Sequence record: MF327008 | Source: Shigella phage Sf24 | Direction: 5' to 3' (one strand) | Length of the DNA: 64,000 bases | In this document: piece by piece, positions 13,209-63,888 of the stretch | Layout: every line of letters begins with the position of its first letter | Position numbering within the stretch: the stretch's first letter is position 1 | Notes under the pieces: model-generated | Seen by the model: only the letters and a program-made list of their open reading frames with translations | Databases searched by the model: none | What the model was told of the DNA's origin: nothing | Made by a program: the position numbers and the translations under genes

Positions 13209-13239
13209 TTTGTGTTCCTCATGTTATGTCAGTAAGATT

Positions 13240-13269
13240 ACTATAACACAACACGAGGGACTTGTAAAC
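13240..13269 (-). promoter_or_regulatory. early promoter (GTTTAC -35, TATAGT -10)
   Basis: Minus strand GTTTAC-N14-GTG-T-TATAGT; part of a 53 bp repeat also found at 28499-28551. Confidence 0.65.
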
Positions 13270-22172: not shown

Positions 22173-22199
22173 TTTATTCTCCTTTGTTTGTGTAAGATA

Positions 22200-22229
22200 A
22201 TACTATCACAAAGGAACCATACTGTAAAC
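22200..22229 (-). promoter_or_regulatory. early promoter
   Basis: Minus strand GTTTAC-N14-GTG-A-TAGTAT upstream of the 21840-22172 gene. Confidence 0.6.
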
Positions 22230-22248
22230 AACTTTGTGCAATCTTTGG

Positions 22249-22277
22249 AAAATAAAAAAGGACTCCCGAAGGAGTCC
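22249..22277 (-). terminator. rho-independent terminator
   Basis: GGACUCC-CGAA-GGAGUCC hairpin followed on the minus strand by UUUUUUAUUUU. Confidence 0.8.
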
Positions 22278-28493: not shown

Positions 28494-28521
28494 AAAGTCC
28501 TCATGTTATGTCAGTAAGACT

Positions 28522-28551
28522 ACTATAACACAACACGAGGGACTTGTAAAC
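28522..28551 (-). promoter_or_regulatory. early promoter for alc
   Basis: Minus strand GTTTAC-N14-GTG-T-TATAGT; near-identical to the element at 13240-13269. Confidence 0.65.
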
Positions 28552-31399: not shown

Positions 31400-33664
31400 T
31401 CATAATTTACAGGATGAACAATCTTCAGCTTTTGGAGTTTCTATTTCATAATCATCAGTACCAGAACCATCACGGGTATTATGATAATAGAAATTTTTTC
31501 CGCCAAAATACCAAAAATACAAAAGGTCATCAATCATTATTGACATTGGAACCTTTCCTTTTGGAAAAATCTGCGGGTCATAGTATGTATTCGCTGAAGC
31601 TGATTGACACACCCATTTCAGCATAATAGCTACCTGCGTAAGATAAGGTTTATTACCTTTCTTAGCTAATTTCCATGTATAATCATAGAGGTCTATGTTA
31701 TGCTCAATATTGGGCACGACTTGATTAAAGGAGCCCTCTTTTGATTCTTTAACAGAGACTGGTCCACGTGGAGGCTCGATACCGTTTGTACTGTTAGAAA
31801 CTTGGGAAGATGACTCACATGGCATAAGTGCTGATAATGTGCTATTACGGATGCCAAAGAGCTTAAGGTCTTCCCGCAGCGACGACCAGTCACAAACGTA
31901 TTTTGGAGCTGCGATTTGGTCAATCTTTTTATTGTACCAGTCGATAGGTAATTCGCCTCGAGACCAACGAGTGTCTGAATAATATTCGCAAGGTCCTTTT
32001 TCTTTGGCGAGCTTAATGGATGCTTTAATGAGTCCATACTGTAATCTCTCAAATAGCTCATGTGTTAAATCGTTAGCATCTTCATAAGAAGCAAAGTTAC
32101 TTGCCAGCCAAGCTGCATAGTTAGTAACACCTACACCAAGGTTTCGACGCTTTTTAGCTTTTTCTGCTTCAGGAACTGGATATCCTTGATAATCCAAAAG
32201 ATTATCAAGAGCACGAACTTGAACTTCTGCCAATTCATTAATTTTATCTTGGTCTTGCCAGTCAAAATTATCTAGTACGAATGCAGAGAGAGTACACAAT
32301 CCAATTTCAGCATCAGGACTATTCACATCATTTGTTGGAATAGCAATTTCACAGCACAAGTTACTCTGACGAATAGGTGCCTTTTCACGAATAAACGGAG
32401 TATAGTTATTCGTATTATCAATGAACTGTACATAAATCCTTGCTGTTCCTGAGCGTTCAGTCATGAGCAATTCAAATAGTTCACGGGCTTTAATACGCTT
32501 TTTACGAATATTAGGGTCTTTTTCTGCTGCTTCATATAATTCACGGAAACGGTCTTGGTCTTTAAAATAAGAATAATAAAGCTCGCCACCCATTTCATGC
32601 GGACTGAACAAAGTAATGTAATCGTTCTTTCCGAATCGTTCCATCATTAGGTCATTCAGTTGAACGCCATAATCCATATGACGGATACGGTTTTCTTCTA
32701 CACCTTTGTTATTTTTCAAAACGAGAAGATTTTCAACTTCCAAATGCCAAATAGGATAATAAGCAGTAGCAGCGCCGCCACGAATTCCACCCTGTGAGCA
32801 TGATTTAACAGCAGTCTGAAAATGTTTCCAAAAAGGAATAACACCAGTATGACGCACTTCACCTGTGCCAATCTTAGAACCTTCGGCACGAATCATACCA
32901 ACGTTAATACCAATTCCAGCGCGTTTGGAGATATATTCAACAATTGAAGCGGAAGCCTTATTGATAGACTTTAATGAATCACCTGCCTCAATAACAACGC
33001 ATGAACTAAACTGTCGAGTCGGAGTACGACAACCAGCCATAATAGGAGTTGGCAATGAAATCTGTCGAGTAGATACTGCTTCATAAAAACGAATAACATG
33101 TTTTAATCTATCAACAGGTTCATCTTGATGCAGTGCCATTCCAATAGTCATAAATGCAAACTGTGGAGTTTCATAAATTTGACCAGTGGTTTTATCTTTA
33201 ACTAGATATTTTTCTTTTAATTGCATCGCCCCGGAATAAGTAAATTCCATATCCCGCTCATGCTTAATTTTTGATTCTAAAAATGTAATTTCTTCTGCTG
33301 AATATTTTGACAATAATTCAGGGTCGTATTTACCTTCATTTACACAGTAAGAAATATGGTCAATAAATGAACGTGGTTCATACTGCCCGTAAACATGCTT
33401 ACGAAGAGCAAACATTAAACAACGTGCAGCTACATATTGGTAATCAGGCTCTTCAACCGAAATAGAATTCGCAGCGGCCTTAATGACAATAGTTTGAATG
33501 TCATCAGTTGTCATTCCATCACGGAGATATGATTTAATATTTTCATATAATTCATAAGGATCTACAGATGTTCCTTCAGCTGCCCAAGATAAAACTTTAA
33601 TAATTTTTTGTGGGTCAAAGCTCTGAGAAACACCACTACTTTTGATAACATTAATTAATTGCAT
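31400..33664 (-). CDS. nrdA: ribonucleotide reductase large subunit
   Basis: 754 aa, T4 NrdA length; class I RNR sequence. Confidence 0.93.
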   Translation of the reverse strand: MQLINVIKSSGVSQSFDPQKIIKVLSWAAEGTSVDPYELYENIKSYLRDGMTTDDIQTIVIKAAANSISVEEPDYQYVAARCLMFALRKHVYGQYEPRSFIDHISYCVNEGKYDPELLSKYSAEEITFLESKIKHERDMEFTYSGAMQLKEKYLVKDKTTGQIYETPQFAFMTIGMALHQDEPVDRLKHVIRFYEAVSTRQISLPTPIMAGCRTPTRQFSSCVVIEAGDSLKSINKASASIVEYISKRAGIGINVGMIRAEGSKIGTGEVRHTGVIPFWKHFQTAVKSCSQGGIRGGAATAYYPIWHLEVENLLVLKNNKGVEENRIRHMDYGVQLNDLMMERFGKNDYITLFSPHEMGGELYYSYFKDQDRFRELYEAAEKDPNIRKKRIKARELFELLMTERSGTARIYVQFIDNTNNYTPFIREKAPIRQSNLCCEIAIPTNDVNSPDAEIGLCTLSAFVLDNFDWQDQDKINELAEVQVRALDNLLDYQGYPVPEAEKAKKRRNLGVGVTNYAAWLASNFASYEDANDLTHELFERLQYGLIKASIKLAKEKGPCEYYSDTRWSRGELPIDWYNKKIDQIAAPKYVCDWSSLREDLKLFGIRNSTLSALMPCESSSQVSNSTNGIEPPRGPVSVKESKEGSFNQVVPNIEHNIDLYDYTWKLAKKGNKPYLTQVAIMLKWVCQSASANTYYDPQIFPKGKVPMSIMIDDLLYFWYFGGKNFYYHNTRDGSGTDDYEIETPKAEDCSSCKL

Positions 33665-36891: not shown

Positions 36892-37000
36892 TTTATTCTC
36901 CTTAGCAAGCTTTAATCAAAAGATATAAACAGACCAACATAACTGCTGCCATAATATAAGGTGCGAACATTTTCTTTTCTCCATTAGTTTTGATAGGGTA

Positions 37001-37030
37001 ATAGTATCACACTACTACCCTTCTGTAAAC
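37001..37030 (-). promoter_or_regulatory. early promoter
   Basis: Minus strand GTTTAC-N14-GTG-A-TACTAT; a 22-codon hydrophobic ORF (36902-36970) with GGAG Shine-Dalgarno lies downstream. Confidence 0.55.
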
Positions 37031-37410
37031 TACTTTTTGAAAGTTTTTCGCAAAAGTTCAATGATTTCATCTACATTGTTTTCGTCAACAATGCAGTGAA
37101 TTTTTGTTACGCCAGAAACCTTGTCTTTGACTTCATCTTCTTCAGAAGTCGGTTCTTTATACTCACGAAAACAATGAAATTCATCTTCGCAAATTTCTAA
37201 AAGTCTATCTTTGAGGTAAAAATGCTTTCCATTTGCGCATTCAATGTGTTTTACTGCTTTATATCCATTAGCGACGGAAACTTCTTTAACTTCAAACCAT
37301 CCGCCATTCTCTCGAATGGCTTTAACTATTGATGAATTAGAACGTGGGCTATAATTAATAAATGTATCAATAAGTCTTGGAACAAGTTCATACTTTTTAC
37401 CGGTATACAT
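37030..37410 (-). CDS. hypothetical protein, 126 aa
   Basis: ORF. Confidence 0.55.
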   Translation of the reverse strand: MYTGKKYELVPRLIDTFINYSPRSNSSIVKAIRENGGWFEVKEVSVANGYKAVKHIECANGKHFYLKDRLLEICEDEFHCFREYKEPTSEEDEVKDKVSGVTKIHCIVDENNVDEIIELLRKTFKK

Positions 37411-37682: not shown

Positions 37683-37725
37683 ATTATTTTCCTCTTTAAT
37701 CATCAGCAGTATTGCCGATAGTTGT

Positions 37726-37755
37726 ATAGTACCACGGAAGAACAAGGATGTAAAC
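37726..37755 (-). promoter_or_regulatory. early promoter with A/T-rich upstream element
   Basis: Minus strand GTTTAC-N14-GTG-G-TACTAT; A/T tract at 37756-37785. Confidence 0.6.
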
Positions 37756-37780
37756 CGTTTTGTGAAAAAAATTTTTGAAA

Positions 37781-37805
37781 TAAAAAGGGGACCTCTAGGG
37801 TCCCC
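37781..37805 (-). terminator. gene 32 terminator
   Basis: GGGGACC-UCUA-GGGUCCCC hairpin followed on the minus strand by UUUUUA. Confidence 0.7.
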
Positions 37806-37827
37806 AATTAATTAGTAATATAATCTA

Positions 37828-47417: not shown

Positions 47418-50400
47418 ATGGCTACTTTAAAACAAATACAATTTAAAAGAAGCAAAACTGCAGGTCAACGCCCTGCTGCTTCAGTATTAGCCGAAGGTGA
47501 ATTGGCTATAAACTTAAAAGACCGTACTCTTTTTACTAAAGATGACTCGGGAAATATTATTGATTTAAGCATTTCTGCCGGTGGTAACATTAGTGGAAAT
47601 ATTACTCAAAATGGTGATTATTTACAAAACGGCACGTATAATCTTAATGGAAATCAGTTTGTTTATGCAGGAAAGTATATTGAATTCTTGCCAAAAACTG
47701 CTGGAAATGGTGCTTGGGCAAATCAGCACACAAATAAAGCTCCAATTTTCACCGATTTGAGTTCAACTACTTCAACTTCTGAATATCATCCGCTAATTAA
47801 ACAACGTTATAAAGATGGAACGTTTTCATTAGGGACTTTAGTTTCTGAAGGCTCAATGAAGATACACTATATCGATGAAACTGGCACTTCAAAATATTGG
47901 ACTTTCCGACGTGATGGTGGTTTTGTTGTTGATAGTGGTAGTTTAACTGTTACTGCTGGAAACATATCTGCTTCAGGCAATATTAATTCGGCATCAGGGG
48001 TTGTTTCAGCTCCTCAAATTAATACAAAAACCATTGTTTTAGATACAAAAGCATTTGGACAATATGATTCGCAGTCATTAGTTCAGTATGTTTATCCTGG
48101 CACAGGTGAAACAAACGGTATAAACTATCTTCGTAAAGTTCGCGCAAAATCAGGTGGTACAATTTATCATGAAATAGCTTCAGCTCAAACTGGAAAAAGC
48201 GATGAAATTTCGTGGTGGACTGGAAATACAGCCGTTAATAAACAAATGGGTCTTCGTAATGATGGTGCAATGGTATTACGTCGTTCACTTGCTATTGGCA
48301 CAATTACTACAGATGAAAACGTAAATAACTATGGATCTGCTGGAGCAATGGGAGAAAAATACATTGTTCTTGGAGATGCGTCAACTGGACTAGCTTATAA
48401 AAAGACAGGAGTTTATGACTTAGTTGGTAGTGGTTTATCTGTTGCTTCTATCACTCCCGACAGTTTCCGTAGTACGCGTAAAGCAATTTTTGGACGTTCT
48501 GAAGACCAAGGCGGTACATGGCTTCTTCCTGGTCAAAACGCTGCTCTTCTTTCAGTTCGTACAGATATTGATCAAAATAATAACGGTGATGGTCAAACTC
48601 ATATTGGATATAATAGTAACAGCAAGTTTTATCATTATTTTAGAGGCAGAGGCCGAATGGCTGTTGGAATGGCTGAAGGTCTTATTGTTGAGCCTGGAAT
48701 TTTAGATATTAAAACTGGTTCAAATACTGTTTCTATTAGAGCTGATGGCGGAATTTCATCTACTCAGCGTCTTTCATTGCAGAATGGTATATTTTTATCT
48801 TCTGATGGAAATAACAACGGTATATCGTTTAAAGCTTCTAGCAGTATAGATGGAACTAAAACTCTTAATTGGGATGCTGGTACTCGTGCAGGTCAAAACA
48901 AAAATACAGTAATTTTAAAAGCATGGGGAAATTCATTTAATACAAGTGGTGGAACTGATAGACATACTGTATTTGAAGTTTCTGATTCACAAGGATACTA
49001 CTTTTATGCTCAACGTACTACCCCTGCATCCGGTCAAACAGTAGGTCCTATTAATTTTAAATTTAATGGTACTGTAGAAACCGGTCATATCAATGGATTA
49101 GGTAATATTACTTTATCTGGGGCAGTTATAGCAGATTCTGCTAATATTAAAGGACCGCTAAAAATATCTAATGCTAATACAGCTGATGCTTTTAGAATAT
49201 GGAACGCTGAATATGGAGCCATTTTCCGTCGTTCAGAAACATCATTGCATATTATTCCTACACTTAAAGATGCAGGGGAAAATGGTGGAATAAGTAATCT
49301 TCGCCCATTAAGTATTGATCTTTCAAACGGATTTGTGCAAATGCATCATTCTCTTTCTGTGGGGAATACAGTAAGAACGAATGGATTGTTTGCTGTGGAT
49401 ACTTCAGCTGCTCTTGTTGCAATTAACAGTCACTCTCGTGTTAATGCTAATTTCAGAATGCAATTAGGACAATCATCTTATATTGATGCTGAATGTACTG
49501 ACGCTGTGCGCCCTGCTGGAGCCGGTTCTTTTGCTTCGCAAAATAACGAAAACGTCCGTGCCCCATTCTATATGAATATAGATAGAACTGATACAAGCAC
49601 TTATGTTCCTATTGTGAAACAAAGATACGTGCAAAATAATAGTTGCTATTCTATTGGTACTTTAATTAATGGTGGTAACTTTAGAGTTCATTATCATGAA
49701 GGTGGCGATGGTAGTTCTACAGGCGTAGTTATAAAAGATTTAGGATGGGAATTTAATAAAAACGGTGATTTTTATTCTCCTGGTAAATTAGGCGCTGGAA
49801 ATATTAGAATAGGTACTGATGGTAATATCACGGGTGGTTCTGGTAACTTTGCTAACTTGAATACAACTTTAAACCGTAAAGTTAATTCTGGTTTTATTAC
49901 TTATGGAGCAACTGCAGGTTGGTACAAGTTTGCAACAGTAACAATGCCTCAAGCTACATCAACCGTTTCAATTACAGTCACTGGCGGAAATGGATTTAAT
50001 TCTGGATCATTTAATCAGTGCGCAATTTCTGAAATTGTTCTTCGTACAGGAAACAATAATCCTAAAGGATTAAATGCTGTTCTATATAGAAGAGGACTAA
50101 ATTCATTTAGAGATATTGCTTGGGTTAATACATCTGGTGATACATATGACATTTATGTTAATATGGGAACATATGCTAATCAGTTGATATTTAACTATAG
50201 TTCTGTTGATAATGCCACAGTTCAAATTATTGGCGCATTCAGTTCAGCTCAAAATCCTGTTGATGCATTGCCAGAAACATATGTTAAAGGTCAGGTAGCA
50301 GATGTATTGACTAACTTAGTTGATTCTGGAAAAACGAAGCGTTTTGTTGCTGAATCTGAAATAGCTATTAATAATCAAACTGGATTACGTATTACGAGTA

Positions 50401-55514: not shown

Positions 55515-55555
55515 TTTCTAATCTCCGTAATTCTGTATCAGTAGTTGATAGTTGT

Positions 55556-55585
55556 ATAGTACCACAGTATGCTTTGGTTGTAAAC
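55556..55585 (-). promoter_or_regulatory. early promoter for motA
   Basis: Minus strand GTTTAC-N14-GTG-G-TACTAT with A/T-rich upstream element; near-identical to elements at 37726 and 59367. Confidence 0.65.
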
Positions 55586-55610
55586 CGTTTTGTGAAAAAA
55601 TTTTTGAAAT

Positions 55611-55636
55611 AAAAAAGGGAGAGCCGAGGCTCTCCC
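55611..55636 (-). terminator. rho-independent terminator upstream of the motA promoter
   Basis: GGGAGAGCC / GGCUCUCCC hairpin followed on the minus strand by UUUUUU. Confidence 0.65.
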
Positions 55637-55641
55637 TAAAA

Positions 55642-55791
55642 TTACTGCTCAAACGCGATAACTATCGTGATAACACGTTGAATTCCGAACGCAAGAAGAC
55701 CTCCTGCTACGGCTGGAACAACACCTAAACCAGCCAGTAAAATGCTACCGGATACTAATGCAGCGCTTGTAATACCTATGAATGGACTCAT
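55642..55791 (-). CDS. small hydrophobic protein, 49 aa
   Basis: Own translation MSPFIGITSAALVSGSILLAGLGVVPAVAGG...; start overlaps gene 52 stop (ATGA). Confidence 0.4.
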   Translation of the reverse strand: MSPFIGITSAALVSGSILLAGLGVVPAVAGGLLAFGIQRVITIVIAFEQ

Positions 55792-58832: not shown

Positions 58833-58860
58833 TTTCTGTTCCTCCGTAGTTGATAGGGTA

Positions 58861-58890
58861 ATAATACCACAGAGGAACAGTCTTGTAAAC
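58861..58890 (-). promoter_or_regulatory. early promoter
   Basis: Minus strand GTTTAC-N14-GTG-G-TATTAT. Confidence 0.55.
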
Positions 58891-59075
58891 AACTTTTTTA
58901 AAAATATTCGTAATAAATGTGAATACCAACTACTACTGCTGAAACTTGCGCAACCCACCACGCACAAGCAATAAGCACAGAATTCAAAATTTTCATAATA
59001 ACCTCATCACAAAAGTAAATGTTAAACAAATTAATGGAATACTAATTAACCAAACGAAACACCACCATAATGAAC

Positions 59076-59339: not shown

Positions 59340-59366
59340 TTTTACTCCTCCGTAGCTGATAGTTGT

Positions 59367-59396
59367 ATAGTACCACGGTCCTTGTGGTATGTAAAC
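59367..59396 (-). promoter_or_regulatory. early promoter
   Basis: Minus strand GTTTAC-N14-GTG-G-TACTAT upstream of the 59076-59339 gene. Confidence 0.6.
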
Positions 59397-59412
59397 CGTT
59401 TTGTGAAAATTT

Positions 59413-59970
59413 TTAAATGGAAAGATACCATCCGTTGTAGTTGCTTTTTCTTACAACCTTACGAAGGTCTTCTCTATCACCGATGAACTTCGGAGTGTAC
59501 TGGATGACACCTGGGTGAATTTCTTTAGTGTTGAATATAATTATACAGTCAGCGACCTGATGATTCAGAATGGGCCCTAGATTTATTCCAGAACCATATG
59601 GATACTCTCCGCTGCATCCTGTTGTTACAGAAATCCAACGTGAGTCAGTTTGATGTGTCTTAACTTCTACACGAAGCCCGCAGTATCTTGGATGCGCCAA
59701 TACATCCCATGCGTATGTATACGGGTCATTAACATCCTCTTGGCCTTTGTTAACATATCCGCTTAGCCAATCTGCTACAAAAAACTCTGCGTACACCGCG
59801 ATACGACATCTTTCAATAACTTCTGCTTTATCCTGATTTGGATTTTGTTTTAAAGAGTATCTTGCTGTATCAGCAATTTTGACCTTCATTTCACTAGTCA
59901 AGTCATTGTTCGATAGGGTAAATGTCGGAATCTGAAATAGTCTCTGTAAACCCGGATTCGTTTTCTGCAT
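59413..59970 (-). CDS. denB: endonuclease IV
   Basis: 185 aa, T4 DenB length; sequence MQKTNPGLQRLFQIPTFTLSNNDL... Confidence 0.9.
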   Translation of the reverse strand: MQKTNPGLQRLFQIPTFTLSNNDLTSEMKVKIADTARYSLKQNPNQDKAEVIERCRIAVYAEFFVADWLSGYVNKGQEDVNDPYTYAWDVLAHPRYCGLRVEVKTHQTDSRWISVTTGCSGEYPYGSGINLGPILNHQVADCIIIFNTKEIHPGVIQYTPKFIGDREDLRKVVRKSNYNGWYLSI

Positions 59971-60232
59971 TTAGACTTTCCTTTTTACCGCTGAGATAAG
60001 CGTTATATACTTTAAGAGTGCCGTAATAAATTCGGTCATTTTCATCTAAAGACTCACGGTCAAGTTCATCGAGTTCCTTTTTATCCATGACTATAACATC
60101 ATTGCAGTAAAGAAACCCAAGTTTTTCGTGACCAAACTCAAATTTATTGCAATACACAATATTAGCGTGATGATTACCGTGCAGTTTAATCTCTTTTATG
60201 TCGGAATCACCGATATTCATACAATAAATCAT
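59903..60232 (-). CDS. hypothetical protein, 109 aa; its 5' end lies in the first copy of the tandem duplication
   Basis: ORF MIYCMNIGDSDIKEIKLHGNHHANIVYCNKFEFGHEK... Confidence 0.5.
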   Translation of the reverse strand: MIYCMNIGDSDIKEIKLHGNHHANIVYCNKFEFGHEKLGFLYCNDVIVMDKKELDELDRESLDENDRIYYGTLKVYNAYLSGKKESLNAENESGFTETISDSDIYPIEQ

Positions 60233-60497
60233 AATTTTTCCTTAAAACAAAAGGGCCGAAGCCCCTTATTTTTATTTGAATTGTGCAATTCTTTTTTCTA
60301 AACAATCTGCGTAAGATTTCATTGAGATGAACTGTGAAAGCAGTAATTCTTGCTACTATAACATCATTGCAGTAAAGAAACCCAAGTTTTTCGTGACCAA
60401 ACTCAAATTTATTGCAATACACAATATTAGCGTGATGATTACCGTGCAGTTTAATCTCTTTTATGTCGGAATCACCGATATTCATACAATAAATCAT
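60207..60497 (-). pseudogene. duplicated 5' fragment of the preceding gene, frameshifted at the repeat junction
   Basis: First 48 codons identical to the 59903-60232 ORF; the frame then reads through the copied terminator hairpin. Confidence 0.5.
60242..60276. terminator. bidirectional hairpin terminator (copy 1 of duplicated element)
   Basis: GGGCC-GAA-GCCCC hairpin flanked by A-rich and T-rich tracts. Confidence 0.55.
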
Positions 60498-60506
60498 AAT
60501 TTTTCC

Positions 60507-60541
60507 TTAAAACAAAAGGGCCGAAGCCCCTTATTTTTATT
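60507..60541. terminator. bidirectional hairpin terminator (copy 2)
   Basis: Identical to 60242-60276; lies after the 64-aa ORF. Confidence 0.55.
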
Positions 60542-60731
60542 TGAATTGTGCAATTCTTTTTTCTAAACAATCTGCGTAAGATTTCATTGAGATGAACTGT
60601 GAAAGCAGTAATTCTTGCTCAACTTCATTAATCGTTAGAAACTTTGTGCTTTCTAAAAATTTGCTCAGTGCATTAATTTTGAGCATTAATTGATCGTATT
60701 CTTCTTTTACTCGTGCTTGATAACCTAACAT
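60537..60731 (-). CDS. hypothetical protein, 64 aa
   Basis: ORF downstream of rIIB; its last ~27 codons lie in the second copy of the duplication. Confidence 0.5.
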   Translation of the reverse strand: MLGYQARVKEEYDQLMLKINALSKFLESTKFLTINEVEQELLLSQFISMKSYADCLEKRIAQFK

Positions 60732-60760
60732 AATTTTCCTTAGTTAAGGGCCGAAGCCCC

Positions 60761-61699
60761 TTATTTAAATTGTTCAGTAACGTCTTCAACTACTTCGTAT
60801 TGGCAAGTACGCATTTTAGCATCGTTGTAATCAATCGGAATTGATACTACATCGCGAGGATGTACTTTAACTTTTACAACTCGGCTGGTTGAACTACCAA
60901 AGTGACGAATATAAGATTTAGAACACACATGCAGACCACGAGAACAAGTTTGTGTATCATCGTCATTCACACGAGTACGTGGCATTTTAACTACTTTACC
61001 AGGACTGTTATCAAAAGTATTTGAATGACAGTCAAAGTAATTACTACGAACTACTTTCCAAGCATAGAAGTAGCCATCTTCTGTAATTTCAATATCGTTT
61101 GCTACCAAGAAATCAAAGAGTCGAGATACCGCTTTTTGGCTCGGGTTTTCCAGCAGATTTTCCAAGAACGGAAAATAAAATTCAAAGTTTTCACCTTTTT
61201 CCATCGAATCGAGAATACGATCAACTAAACCAGACCGCAATTCAATATTTTGATAGAACAAGCTTCCACCTTCAATTCGAACATCACCGGAAATATATTT
61301 TTCAACAGCGCGACGAACGTTAATTTTTTGTGCTGCTTCTTCCAATTTATCTGCAACAAGCAGATTAAGAATTTCCTGGAAGTTTGAATGAGTATTAGGA
61401 GTTGCGTTATAAGTTACACCGTCAACAGTAATTGAAATGAATTTTTTAGATGCATTCCAAATAATGTCAGATTTAGCAACTGGAGCAATAACTGCATCGC
61501 TATTAACTTTAACTGTAATATCACCGCTAATAGTAACTTTAGGGCGTTTAGCTTCTTCAGCATTTTTCAAAACACGACGGATTGTGTCAACCGATACATC
61601 CTTCCAATAAGCCAATTCCTGTTGGGTGTAATTACCGCTTGAATACAGTTTAACAATTTCAGCTTGTTCGTTTTTGGTCAGGCATTTAATATTGTACAT
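60761..61699 (-). CDS. rIIB: rIIB protein
   Basis: 312 aa, T4 rIIB length; sequence MYNIKCLTKNEQAEIVKLYSSGNYTQQELA... Confidence 0.92.
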   Translation of the reverse strand: MYNIKCLTKNEQAEIVKLYSSGNYTQQELAYWKDVSVDTIRRVLKNAEEAKRPKVTISGDITVKVNSDAVIAPVAKSDIIWNASKKFISITVDGVTYNATPNTHSNFQEILNLLVADKLEEAAQKINVRRAVEKYISGDVRIEGGSLFYQNIELRSGLVDRILDSMEKGENFEFYFPFLENLLENPSQKAVSRLFDFLVANDIEITEDGYFYAWKVVRSNYFDCHSNTFDNSPGKVVKMPRTRVNDDDTQTCSRGLHVCSKSYIRHFGSSTSRVVKVKVHPRDVVSIPIDYNDAKMRTCQYEVVEDVTEQFK

Positions 61700-61710: not shown

Positions 61711-63888
61711 TTAGGCCGCAAGGGCCTTCATAGTTTTAGCGATTTGGGAAACTTCATCATCACTTAAAGAGCTGCGATATCCGATGAAGTCGGAAACAAT
61801 ACGGAATTTCTTGGTAAACTCAGCAACCATTTTATCACTGTTTTTTGAAGCATTATTTGATAATACATCAAAAAGATTAGTTACTGTCCAGATGTCATGA
61901 CCGATGGTATCTTTTCCACCGTTGAAATATACACCCTGTAATGAACTAACCATATTAGCGAGTCGTGTATATTCTTCAGAAACTTCATCTACACTGAAGT
62001 ACTTCATCATAAAATCTAGCTCAGGATACTTGATAATTTTATCAATATATCGTTTAGCTGAACTTGAATAACCTACGTACTTATCATAATCTACATCATC
62101 AAAAGCATCTACATATAAATCACGCAAAGCTTCAAAAATACATTGGCACTGACCGAGTTCTTTTACCTTTTTCTGTAAAAGCGGACGAATAACATAAAAT
62201 TCATTAATGCCAATAAGATTAGCCATACGAATCAAAATATTCATAGATGGATGACAAAGCGATGTAGTACCATCCATAGAGAAAATATCAGAACGATGCA
62301 TATACGCTACATAACCAGTAATTTCATCTGCTTCTGATGTGAGCGTAAATAGTTCCTCTTTTTCCCAGCGTCCGTCTTTAATTTCAAACTTAAATGCTGT
62401 AGCAGCTTTAGGACGAGGAGCTTTACTTTTAACTACCTTTGGAATATAACTTTTAACCAAAGCTTCAATTTCTGACAAATAGTGAATGTTAACTTCATCA
62501 CTTTCAAACATTGCCATAATATCAGGTAGTAAATCAATCTGCGATTCTACTTCCGGATTAATAAACAGAAGACGCTCATTGTGATGAATATTCAAAGTGT
62601 TATTAAATTCACTATCATCTAGCGCATGTGCTAATCCACGGACAATATTAACACGATTTTTAATATTATCAATAACGATATTAATTTTTGTTGTATTAAT
62701 ACCAAACAGACGATAACTTGATGCAACGGCTGAAGTTTCATGACTTTGCTTAATGCGTTTCAGTCGAGGGTCAAGATTTACTTCATACACCACGCCTGCA
62801 TTACATAACTTACTGTCAGGTTCAAACATGCTCTGCATCTTCTTATATGACAGATTTTTAGTCGTGAATTTGACTGAATTACTAATCATATAATCTCGAG
62901 CAGAATAGCCCATTTTCATTAACTCGCGATACGTATGGCGAGGAGATGTAGATTCTTTAAATCGTTTTACATCTTCATTAAATGCTTTCTCACTAAGCTC
63001 TTTAACTCGTTCAATAATATTTTTACGAGTACGATCATCCAATGAAAGAGCTTCACGTGATGGAGCAATATCAAGTGAACCCATTGGAAACTTAATGTAA
63101 TTTACTTCATTGCGAATGCTTAGCCAGTTACGGTCTCTAATAACACCATCGATAGGATAAACAATACCGCCATAGATAGCATATAATCCACCACGATCAG
63201 GCCAGTATCTTTCTGGATTTACACCGTAATAGTCATCAAAATCCGGAAAATAATCAATTTCGCGGTCAAGACCATTAATGATAGCTAAATCTTTGAAAGG
63301 TCGCATGATATAAGAAACTTCATAAGCAAAGTTTCTAAAGTCTTTTTCTTCAACTGGAACTACGATTTCAATACCAGTTTTATCATCTGGACCCATTTCT
63401 TTTACGAATGTAGGTTTAATCTGTGGACCATCACCATCCATGTAAGCTACATAACCACGAATTTCACCTTTATGATACGAAGTAATACTAAATGTATCAG
63501 TATAACTAAACGGAGATTTAGAACCTAAACCAAATCCGCCAATGAAATCGTTAGATTCAGCCTTAGATGAACTGAAGTATGAATTATACAAACCAGGAGA
63601 ATTATCATCACCCTGAATATCAAAATCACTCATACCCGGACCAAAATCTCGGCAAACAAATCGTGGATCTAAACGTCCAGGAACTTGAATGATAAATTTT
63701 TCAGGATTTCCATTGAGAGCATGGGCATCAATCATGTTGGTAATCAATTCACGAACAACTGCGCGAATCTTATTTGTATACAAATCAGATGATAAGATTT
63801 TAAATACTTTAGGAGATGCTGTGATGCTAAATGCTTTTGATTTAGAACCATTACCAAGAATTGTTTCTTTTTCAGTGGTGATAATCAT
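61711..63888 (-). CDS. rIIA: rIIA protein
   Basis: 725 aa, T4 rIIA length; GHKL-type ATPase-like N-terminal region. Confidence 0.92.

Follow-up and report, generated by a model that had tools for sequence, protein, structure and literature searches.

An exact 265 bp tandem repeat between denB and rIIB in the Shigella phage Sf24 record as a probable assembly-join artefact

The record of Shigella phage Sf24 (MF327008) contains two identical head-to-tail copies of a 265 bp unit between denB and rIIB. This repeat is most probably (at about 0.9, by our own estimate) an artefact of assembly, in which overlapping ends were abutted without being merged, and not a feature of the phage. The assignment is based on the repeat being exact, private to one record and free of junction microhomology, on the sister record of phage Sf25, which is full of similar repeats with technical hallmarks, and on the start of sister records exactly at CDS boundaries. 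Positions are given for the window, i.e. the whole 64,000 nt stretch of the Sf24 record that was analysed, unless another record is named; the coordinates of all features are collected in Table 1.

Table 1. Features of the denB-rIIB region in the Sf24 window and exact tandem duplications in the Sf25 record.
Feature	Sequence	Position	Strand	Remarks
denB (endonuclease IV)	Sf24 window	59413-59970	-	Left neighbour, untouched by repeat; annotation of ime09 and Sf25
109-aa DUF7418 ORF	Sf24 window	59903-60232	-	Intact; first 143 nt in copy 1
Copy 1 of the 265 bp unit	Sf24 window	60090-60354		100% identical to copy 2
Chimeric 96-aa ORF	Sf24 window	60207-60497	-	48 DUF7418 residues, then the 3' end of DenB.1 read out of frame
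Terminator-like hairpin AAGGGGCUUCGGCCCUUU, then UGUUUU	Sf24 window	60250-60267	-	In copy 1
Copy 2 of the 265 bp unit	Sf24 window	60355-60619		Novel junction at 60354/60355
Hairpin AAGGGGCUUCGGCCCUUU	Sf24 window	60515-60532	-	In copy 2; extra copy
DenB.1	Sf24 window	60537-60731	-	Intact 64-aa ORF; last 83 nt in copy 2
Third hairpin copy	Sf24 window	60745-60763		Between rIIB and DenB.1; 230 nt from copy-2 hairpin
rIIB	Sf24 window	60761-61699	-	Right neighbour, untouched by repeat; annotation of ime09 and Sf25
rIIA	Sf24 window	61711-63888	-	Annotation of relatives ime09 and Sf25
Duplication	Sf25 record	Start 3531		Period 310 bp
Duplication	Sf25 record	Start 32923		Period 202 bp
Duplication	Sf25 record	Start 54472		Period 165 bp
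Duplication	Sf25 record	Start 60314		Period 153 bp
Duplication	Sf25 record	Start 65651		Period 249 bp
Duplication	Sf25 record	Start 66916		Period 178 bp
Sixteenth duplication	Sf25 record	Start 70477		66 bp; N base-calls at junction
Duplication	Sf25 record	Start 94631		Period 249 bp
Duplication	Sf25 record	Start 106811		Period 208 bp
Duplication	Sf25 record	Start 109699		Period 244 bp
Duplication	Sf25 record	Start 118767		Period 114 bp
Duplication	Sf25 record	Start 122837		Period 147 bp
Duplication	Sf25 record	Start 135874		Period 177 bp
Duplication	Sf25 record	Start 141903		Period 249 bp
Duplication	Sf25 record	Start 143142		Period 249 bp
Duplication	Sf25 record	Start 144337		Period 249 bp

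Structure of the repeat

Direct reading shows the two units to be identical at 265 of 265 positions with a spacing of 265, and a repeat search returned the same two copies at 100% identity. Tandem Repeats Finder reports positions 60090-60619 with a period of 265, 2.0 copies, 100% matches and a score of 1060. The edges of the repeat are exact, with a G before copy 1 where the unit ends in T and a C after copy 2 where the unit begins with A, and in the flanks ...CCATG/ACTAT... and ...TTGCT/CAACT... not one further base matches at either end. The novel junction, TTGCT/ACTAT, which in its longer form reads ...AGTAATTCTTGCT directly followed by ACTATAACATCAT..., has 0 bp of microhomology. With a GC content of 35.5% the per-base match probability is 0.27 and the probability of 265 matches is of the order of 1e-150; a chance origin of the identity is excluded. 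The repeat is the only exact direct repeat of at least 40 nt within 5 kb in the whole 64 kb window.

The initial annotation had described a perfect 2 x 265 bp tandem duplication, each unit of which carries the 3' end of a 64-aa ORF, a hairpin and the first 48 codons of a 109-aa ORF, with a frameshifted pseudo-ORF at 60207-60497. The duplication is borne out by all three of the readings above, the content of the unit is as described, on the minus strand, and the pseudo-ORF is present, with a length of 96 aa and a first 48 residues identical to those of the 109-aa ORF.

Genes in and around the repeat

The ORFs and the annotation of phages ime09 and Sf25 place all genes of the region on the minus strand in the order rIIA, rIIB, DenB.1, 109-aa ORF and denB. 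Read on this strand, the 265 bp unit consists of the last 83 nt of DenB.1, the hairpin, and the ribosome-binding region with the first 143 nt (47.7 codons) of the 109-aa ORF. The unit straddles this gene boundary and therefore leaves one intact copy each of DenB.1 and of the 109-aa ORF.

The 109-aa ORF matches Pfam family PF24193 (DUF7418) over its full length (E-value 3.6e-37); its counterparts are AEK12527 in ime09 and gp124 in Sf25, and its exact sequence is found in many Tequatroviruses. The exact sequence of DenB.1 is shared with DenB.1 of ime09 and belongs to the same 90% cluster as DenB.1 of T4. It matches PF21825 (crAss001_48 related protein; E-value 1.9e-19, above the curated cut-off), and this small T-even early protein thus falls in a family named after a protein of a crAss-like phage. 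The longest ORF for denB, of 185 aa, shares 68 nt with the end of the DUF7418 ORF, and its translation has no Pfam match with an E-value of 0.01 or better. Since denB is annotated as shorter in the relatives (477 nt in ime09 and 489 nt in Sf25), an internal ATG is probably the true start.

The chimeric ORF created across the junction was deposited as hypothetical protein Sf24_gp122 (AUV63131.1 / YP_009619202.1). It covers only positions 1-52 of the 101-position DUF7418 profile and begins with the start codon of the DUF7418 gene in its original ribosome-binding context. An exact look-up among about 15 billion proteins returned a one-member cluster from Shigella phage Sf24 only (one 168,112 bp contig). 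The entry has been propagated to RefSeq (YP_009619202.1) and to UniProt (A0A2K9VLA0), where it is named DUF7418 domain-containing protein.

Hairpins and other repeated elements

The hairpin in the unit has a seven-pair stem, a UUCG loop and the tail TGTTTT (minus strand), folds with -13.3 kcal/mol and lies 5 nt past the stop codon of DenB.1. A GC-rich stem-loop with a U-run located 3' of a stop codon is what is expected of a predicted intrinsic terminator, and the element is accordingly described here as terminator-like. The GGGGCUUCGGCCC hairpin with its flanks occurs at 60251-60276, 60516-60541 and 60746-60771, with the third copy being 92% identical over 26 nt. This third copy lies outside the duplication, is natural and is also present in ime09. 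On the plus strand, too, the GGGGCUUCGGCCC hairpin has a terminator-like score, and it may act in both directions.

A family of direct repeats of 60-100 nt that are 61-80% alike is scattered over the window (22189-22252, 36990-37053, 37708-37814, 55538-55644, 58843-58913 and 59349-59419). On the minus strand its members contain GTTTACA and, after about 17 nt, TACTAT or TATTAT, with A/T-rich sequence upstream, an arrangement that we take to resemble T4 early promoters. A GC-rich hairpin follows two of the members (37717-37814 and 55547-55644). A separate 54 nt direct repeat (13216-13269 and 28498-28551), 98% identical over a distance of 15.3 kb and ending in ...GGGACTTGTAAAC, could likewise be a promoter-type element of the minus strand.

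Occurrence outside Sf24

A 1501 nt query from the region matches 616 phage records in a collection that did not include MF327008 itself; all of the best 40 that were listed cover the query in about 1234 nt, which corresponds to a single copy of the unit. A 140 nt query across the junction is contiguous in no phage record of the collection, the best matches consisting of two pieces 264 nt apart, and exact searches with a 26-mer spanning the junction returned nothing from IMG/VR, the JGI metagenome contigs or the GTDB species genomes. One 265 bp unit each is present in ime09, by alignment, and in Sf25, an isolate of the same species. Among the best 40 of 616 matches listed and in the three collections searched, neither the repeat nor its junction occurs outside the Sf24 record. 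Comparison with related T-even genomes had been put forward in the initial annotation as a check on the repeat, and the relatives among the matches listed are all single copy.

The closest record is that of Sf25, a phage placed in the species Tequatrovirus sf24; over 96% of the last 24.5 kb of the window the two are 98.4% identical.

Duplications in the Sf25 record and in other records of the study

The Sf25 record (MF327009) comes from the same study as Sf24, has the adjacent accession number and represents the same species. The whole record was rebuilt from pieces and scanned for exact tandem duplications. It contains 15 of these with periods of 114-310 bp, together with a 16th of 66 bp, which together make up about 3.2 kb. 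None of the 16 junctions occurs in BCH953P2 or KNP1, the two outside genomes that were tested, and none of the seven whose region is covered by the Sf24 window occurs in the window. At each of these seven sites the window has one copy, with flanks that are 100% identical at five of the six tested by BLAST.

Several properties of the Sf25 duplications are technical in character. In the 66 bp repeat the first copy ends in N calls exactly at the junction (TCTNTGAN, compared with TCTTTGAC in the second copy), a pattern resembling a read or contig whose low-quality end was placed against the start of the next piece. A period of exactly 249 bp recurs at five unrelated sites. To our knowledge no biological process yields five sites of exactly this length, whereas a constant set by the read length would; the recurrence suggests reads of 250 nt. 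The microhomology at the junctions of the 15 perfect duplications is 0-3 bp, with a mean of 1.1.

The Sf25 repeats affect at least nine genes. An out-of-frame 244 bp repeat lying wholly inside the frame of gene 56 (dCTPase), which is essential in T4, splits it into gp158 and gp159. The DNA polymerase gene (gp43) has 2844 nt in Sf25 compared with 2697 nt in Sf21 (+147), the dCMP hydroxymethylase gene (gp42) has 855 nt compared with 741 nt in Sf21 (+114) and rIIA has 2427 nt compared with 2178 nt in both Sf21 and the Sf24 window (+249). NrdC.4 and NrdC.6 are each longer by 249 nt, and other repeats lengthen NrdA and NrdC.5 or duplicate ModA.2 and part of gp5.1. The split gene 56 and the enlarged DNA polymerase, dCMP hydroxymethylase and rIIA are biologically implausible. 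The Sf25 annotation itself lists a 'gp5.1 lacking the C-terminus' beside a 'full-length gp5.1'. The 16 duplications in Sf25 are almost certainly assembly joins.

It was also considered whether the Sf25 repeats preserve the frame within genes and break it only where they cross from one gene into the next, as filtering by selection or by annotator curation might leave them. A test on the collapsed sequence showed two repeats, of 244 and 178 bp, to be out of frame and yet entirely within open frames, one of them being that which splits gene 56; this selection-like pattern was therefore rejected.

Repeats of this kind are not found in the outside baseline, the Tequatrovirus genome BCH953P2 (168,034 bp), which has no exact direct repeat of at least 40 nt within 5 kb. 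BCH953P2 alone was used as the clean baseline for the repeat scan. The record of Escherichia phage KNP1 (KX452694) carries an UNVERIFIED flag and has 2,804 Ns; its dispersed 'exact repeats' are probably runs of N, which makes it unusable for this purpose. No terminal overlap between the record ends was found in Sf25, BCH953P2 or KNP1.

Two further records of the study were scanned over their first 50 kb. Sf20 (MF327006) has one exact 2 x 74 bp tandem repeat at 49625-49773, which is probably the same kind of join artefact. This repeat is located near the 3' end of a gene for an Alt-like ADP-ribosyltransferase, and a neighbouring gene is annotated as 'lacks C-terminus'. The first 50 kb of Sf21 (MF327007) contain no such repeat, and the problem is thus not uniform across the study.

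Origin of the repeat

T4-like genomes are circularly permuted, so that the contig ends given by an assembler are arbitrary and often overlap. The Sf25 and Sf20 records begin at base 1 of the gp2 (gene 2) CDS and the Sf21 record at base 1 of the rIIA CDS. Such starts exactly at a CDS boundary indicate that the genomes were cut to a chosen start and rejoined after assembly. Base 1 of the Sf24 window aligns to position 32,243 of Sf25, and the chimeric ORF is gene 122 in Sf24 where the counterparts of its neighbours are genes 124 and 125 in Sf25. Judged from this offset and from the gene numbering, the Sf24 record probably starts at the same place as Sf25.

The repeat could have arisen from these steps as follows. 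Two assembled ends, either both termini of one circularly permuted contig or the termini of two neighbouring contigs, would have shared the same 265 bp. Placed end to end without trimming, they would give an exact tandem repeat with arbitrary boundaries, and rotation of the sequence to start at the end of gene 2 would then have left the join in mid-record. The by-products would be 265 spurious bases, a second hairpin downstream of DenB.1 and the spurious 96-aa ORF annotated as gp122. The absence of microhomology in Sf24 and its low values in Sf25 are what arbitrary ends would yield by chance. With the repeats collapsed, the window has 63,735 nt and the homologous stretch of Sf25 about 62,365 nt; ordinary indels thus explain the difference in length between Sf24 and Sf25, and the Sf24 record need hold no further repeats. 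The lengths fit a single circularization join in Sf24. We infer a common origin for the Sf24 and Sf25 repeats, as well as the kind of join in Sf24, from this combined analysis.

The length of 265 bp is not a standard k-mer overlap, which counts against the artefact. An overlap of contig ends by a fixed k-mer, as left by a standard de Bruijn assembler, was considered as the specific source and is unlikely, as periods of 66-310 bp fit no fixed k. Overlaps on the scale of the read length would fit the periods better.

The initial annotation had left two options, a very recent event or an assembly artefact, and it is mainly the 16 private duplications in Sf25 that favour the second and disfavour the first. 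A genuine and very recent tandem duplication in the Sf24 stock would require a homology-independent illegitimate join during concatemer replication, for which we see only a small chance. The same small chance applies to the fuller account in which the join, for example a topoisomerase-mediated or end-joining-like one, was followed by a bottleneck at plaque purification that fixed the duplication, with recombination between the copies yet to remove it. A head-to-tail repeat of a contiguous segment that leaves one intact copy of each flanking gene is the form that a real duplication would take and one that could be tolerated at this position, and zero divergence suits a recent event. The denB-rIIB region is non-essential in T4, a phage that reportedly forms and carries duplications near rII. 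In addition, there is only one such repeat in the 64 kb of Sf24, compared with seven in the homologous part of the riddled Sf25 record; the Sf24 assembly was thus far cleaner, and the cause of its repeat need not be that of the repeats in Sf25.

Against a genuine duplication, a single record carries the repeat where hundreds match the region (the best 40 of 616 being listed), and the clean Tequatrovirus genome BCH953P2 has no such repeat. The Sf24 junction also differs from what is usual in T4, where deletions and duplications are said to join typically at short repeats. Finally, Sf25, which went through the same pipeline, has 16 similar repeats with technical hallmarks. A real, very recent 265 bp duplication, formed in the dispensable stretch between denB and rIIB by a homology-independent join, without divergence so far and presumably segregating in the Sf24 lysate, is regarded as improbable. 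If it were true, it would be a natural snapshot of the first step in the duplication of a T-even gene boundary.

Far less probable still is a duplication selected for its function, either by providing a second terminator between DenB.1 and the DUF7418 gene or through a 48-residue DUF7418 fragment with an unrelated tail that modulates the full-length protein. The extra hairpin is terminator-like on the coding strand, and the chimeric ORF keeps the translation start of the DUF7418 gene. However, the duplication is absent from the related phages checked (best 40 of 616 listed, and the junction query), neither copy has diverged or been refined, the chimeric product comprises half of the DUF7418 profile with an out-of-frame end, and every argument for an artefact applies here as well. 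Equally negligible is recombination between the three copies (about 26 nt) of the UUCG hairpin element: the third copy at 60746-60771 speaks for it, but unequal hairpin-to-hairpin exchange predicts a period of 230 nt with boundaries at the hairpins and is contradicted by the observed period of 265 and boundaries inside two ORFs, 94 and 88 nt from the hairpin.

Significance

As a probable assembly join, the Sf24 repeat provides no evidence for rearrangement activity near rII and has little biological weight. Its weight lies in data quality. Sf24 is a RefSeq genome that gives its name to the species Tequatrovirus sf24, and the spurious gp122 is already in RefSeq and UniProt. The Sf25 record is much worse, with its spurious repeats inflating or splitting rIIA, NrdA, gp42, gp43, gp56 and NrdC.4-6. 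Users of the two records could be misled with respect to protein lengths, pangenomes, repeat surveys and duplication rates. Screening records for tandem repeats that are exact, private and on the scale of the read length is simple and would detect such cases.

Comparison with known systems

Tandem duplications of the rII region of T4 have reportedly been known since classical genetic work; they are said to be kilobase-scale, to include whole cistrons, to have been selected by rII complementation and to have been shown both physically and genetically. The Sf24 repeat resembles them in being head-to-tail and near rIIB in a T-even genome, and instability through recombination between the copies would be expected of both. 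It differs in being 265 bp long, unselected, without a whole gene and known from its sequence alone. Since the classical duplications are kilobase-scale and selected, they do not explain the Sf24 repeat. The initial annotation had pointed to the region as that of the classical rII-denB rearrangements, a link that finds no support: there is no microhomology and no sign of selection, and similar repeats occur genome-wide in this set of records and are not specific to rII.

A closer parallel is offered by the erroneous internal repeats that short-read assembly introduces into phage genomes; a 79 bp internal repeat in Klebsiella phage Tokugawa proved to be an artefact of this kind, and Sanger sequencing confirmed the artefact status of others (PMC10438801). 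Like these, the Sf24 repeat is exact, absent from relatives and biologically unsupported, and it creates a spurious, frameshifted ORF. Unlike the Tokugawa repeat, its status as an artefact is deduced from comparison and from the sister record rather than from reads or Sanger sequencing, and its 265 bp exceed a typical k-mer overlap.

Close counterparts are the 16 duplications in Sf25. These bear technical marks (the N calls, the five periods of 249 bp and the split gene 56), whereas the Sf24 repeat bears none. The Sf24 repeat is nevertheless exact and private as they are and shares their study, their species and probably their record origin, with the low junction homology of the Sf25 repeats (0-3 bp) resembling its own and their unit lengths of 66-310 bp bracketing its 265 bp.
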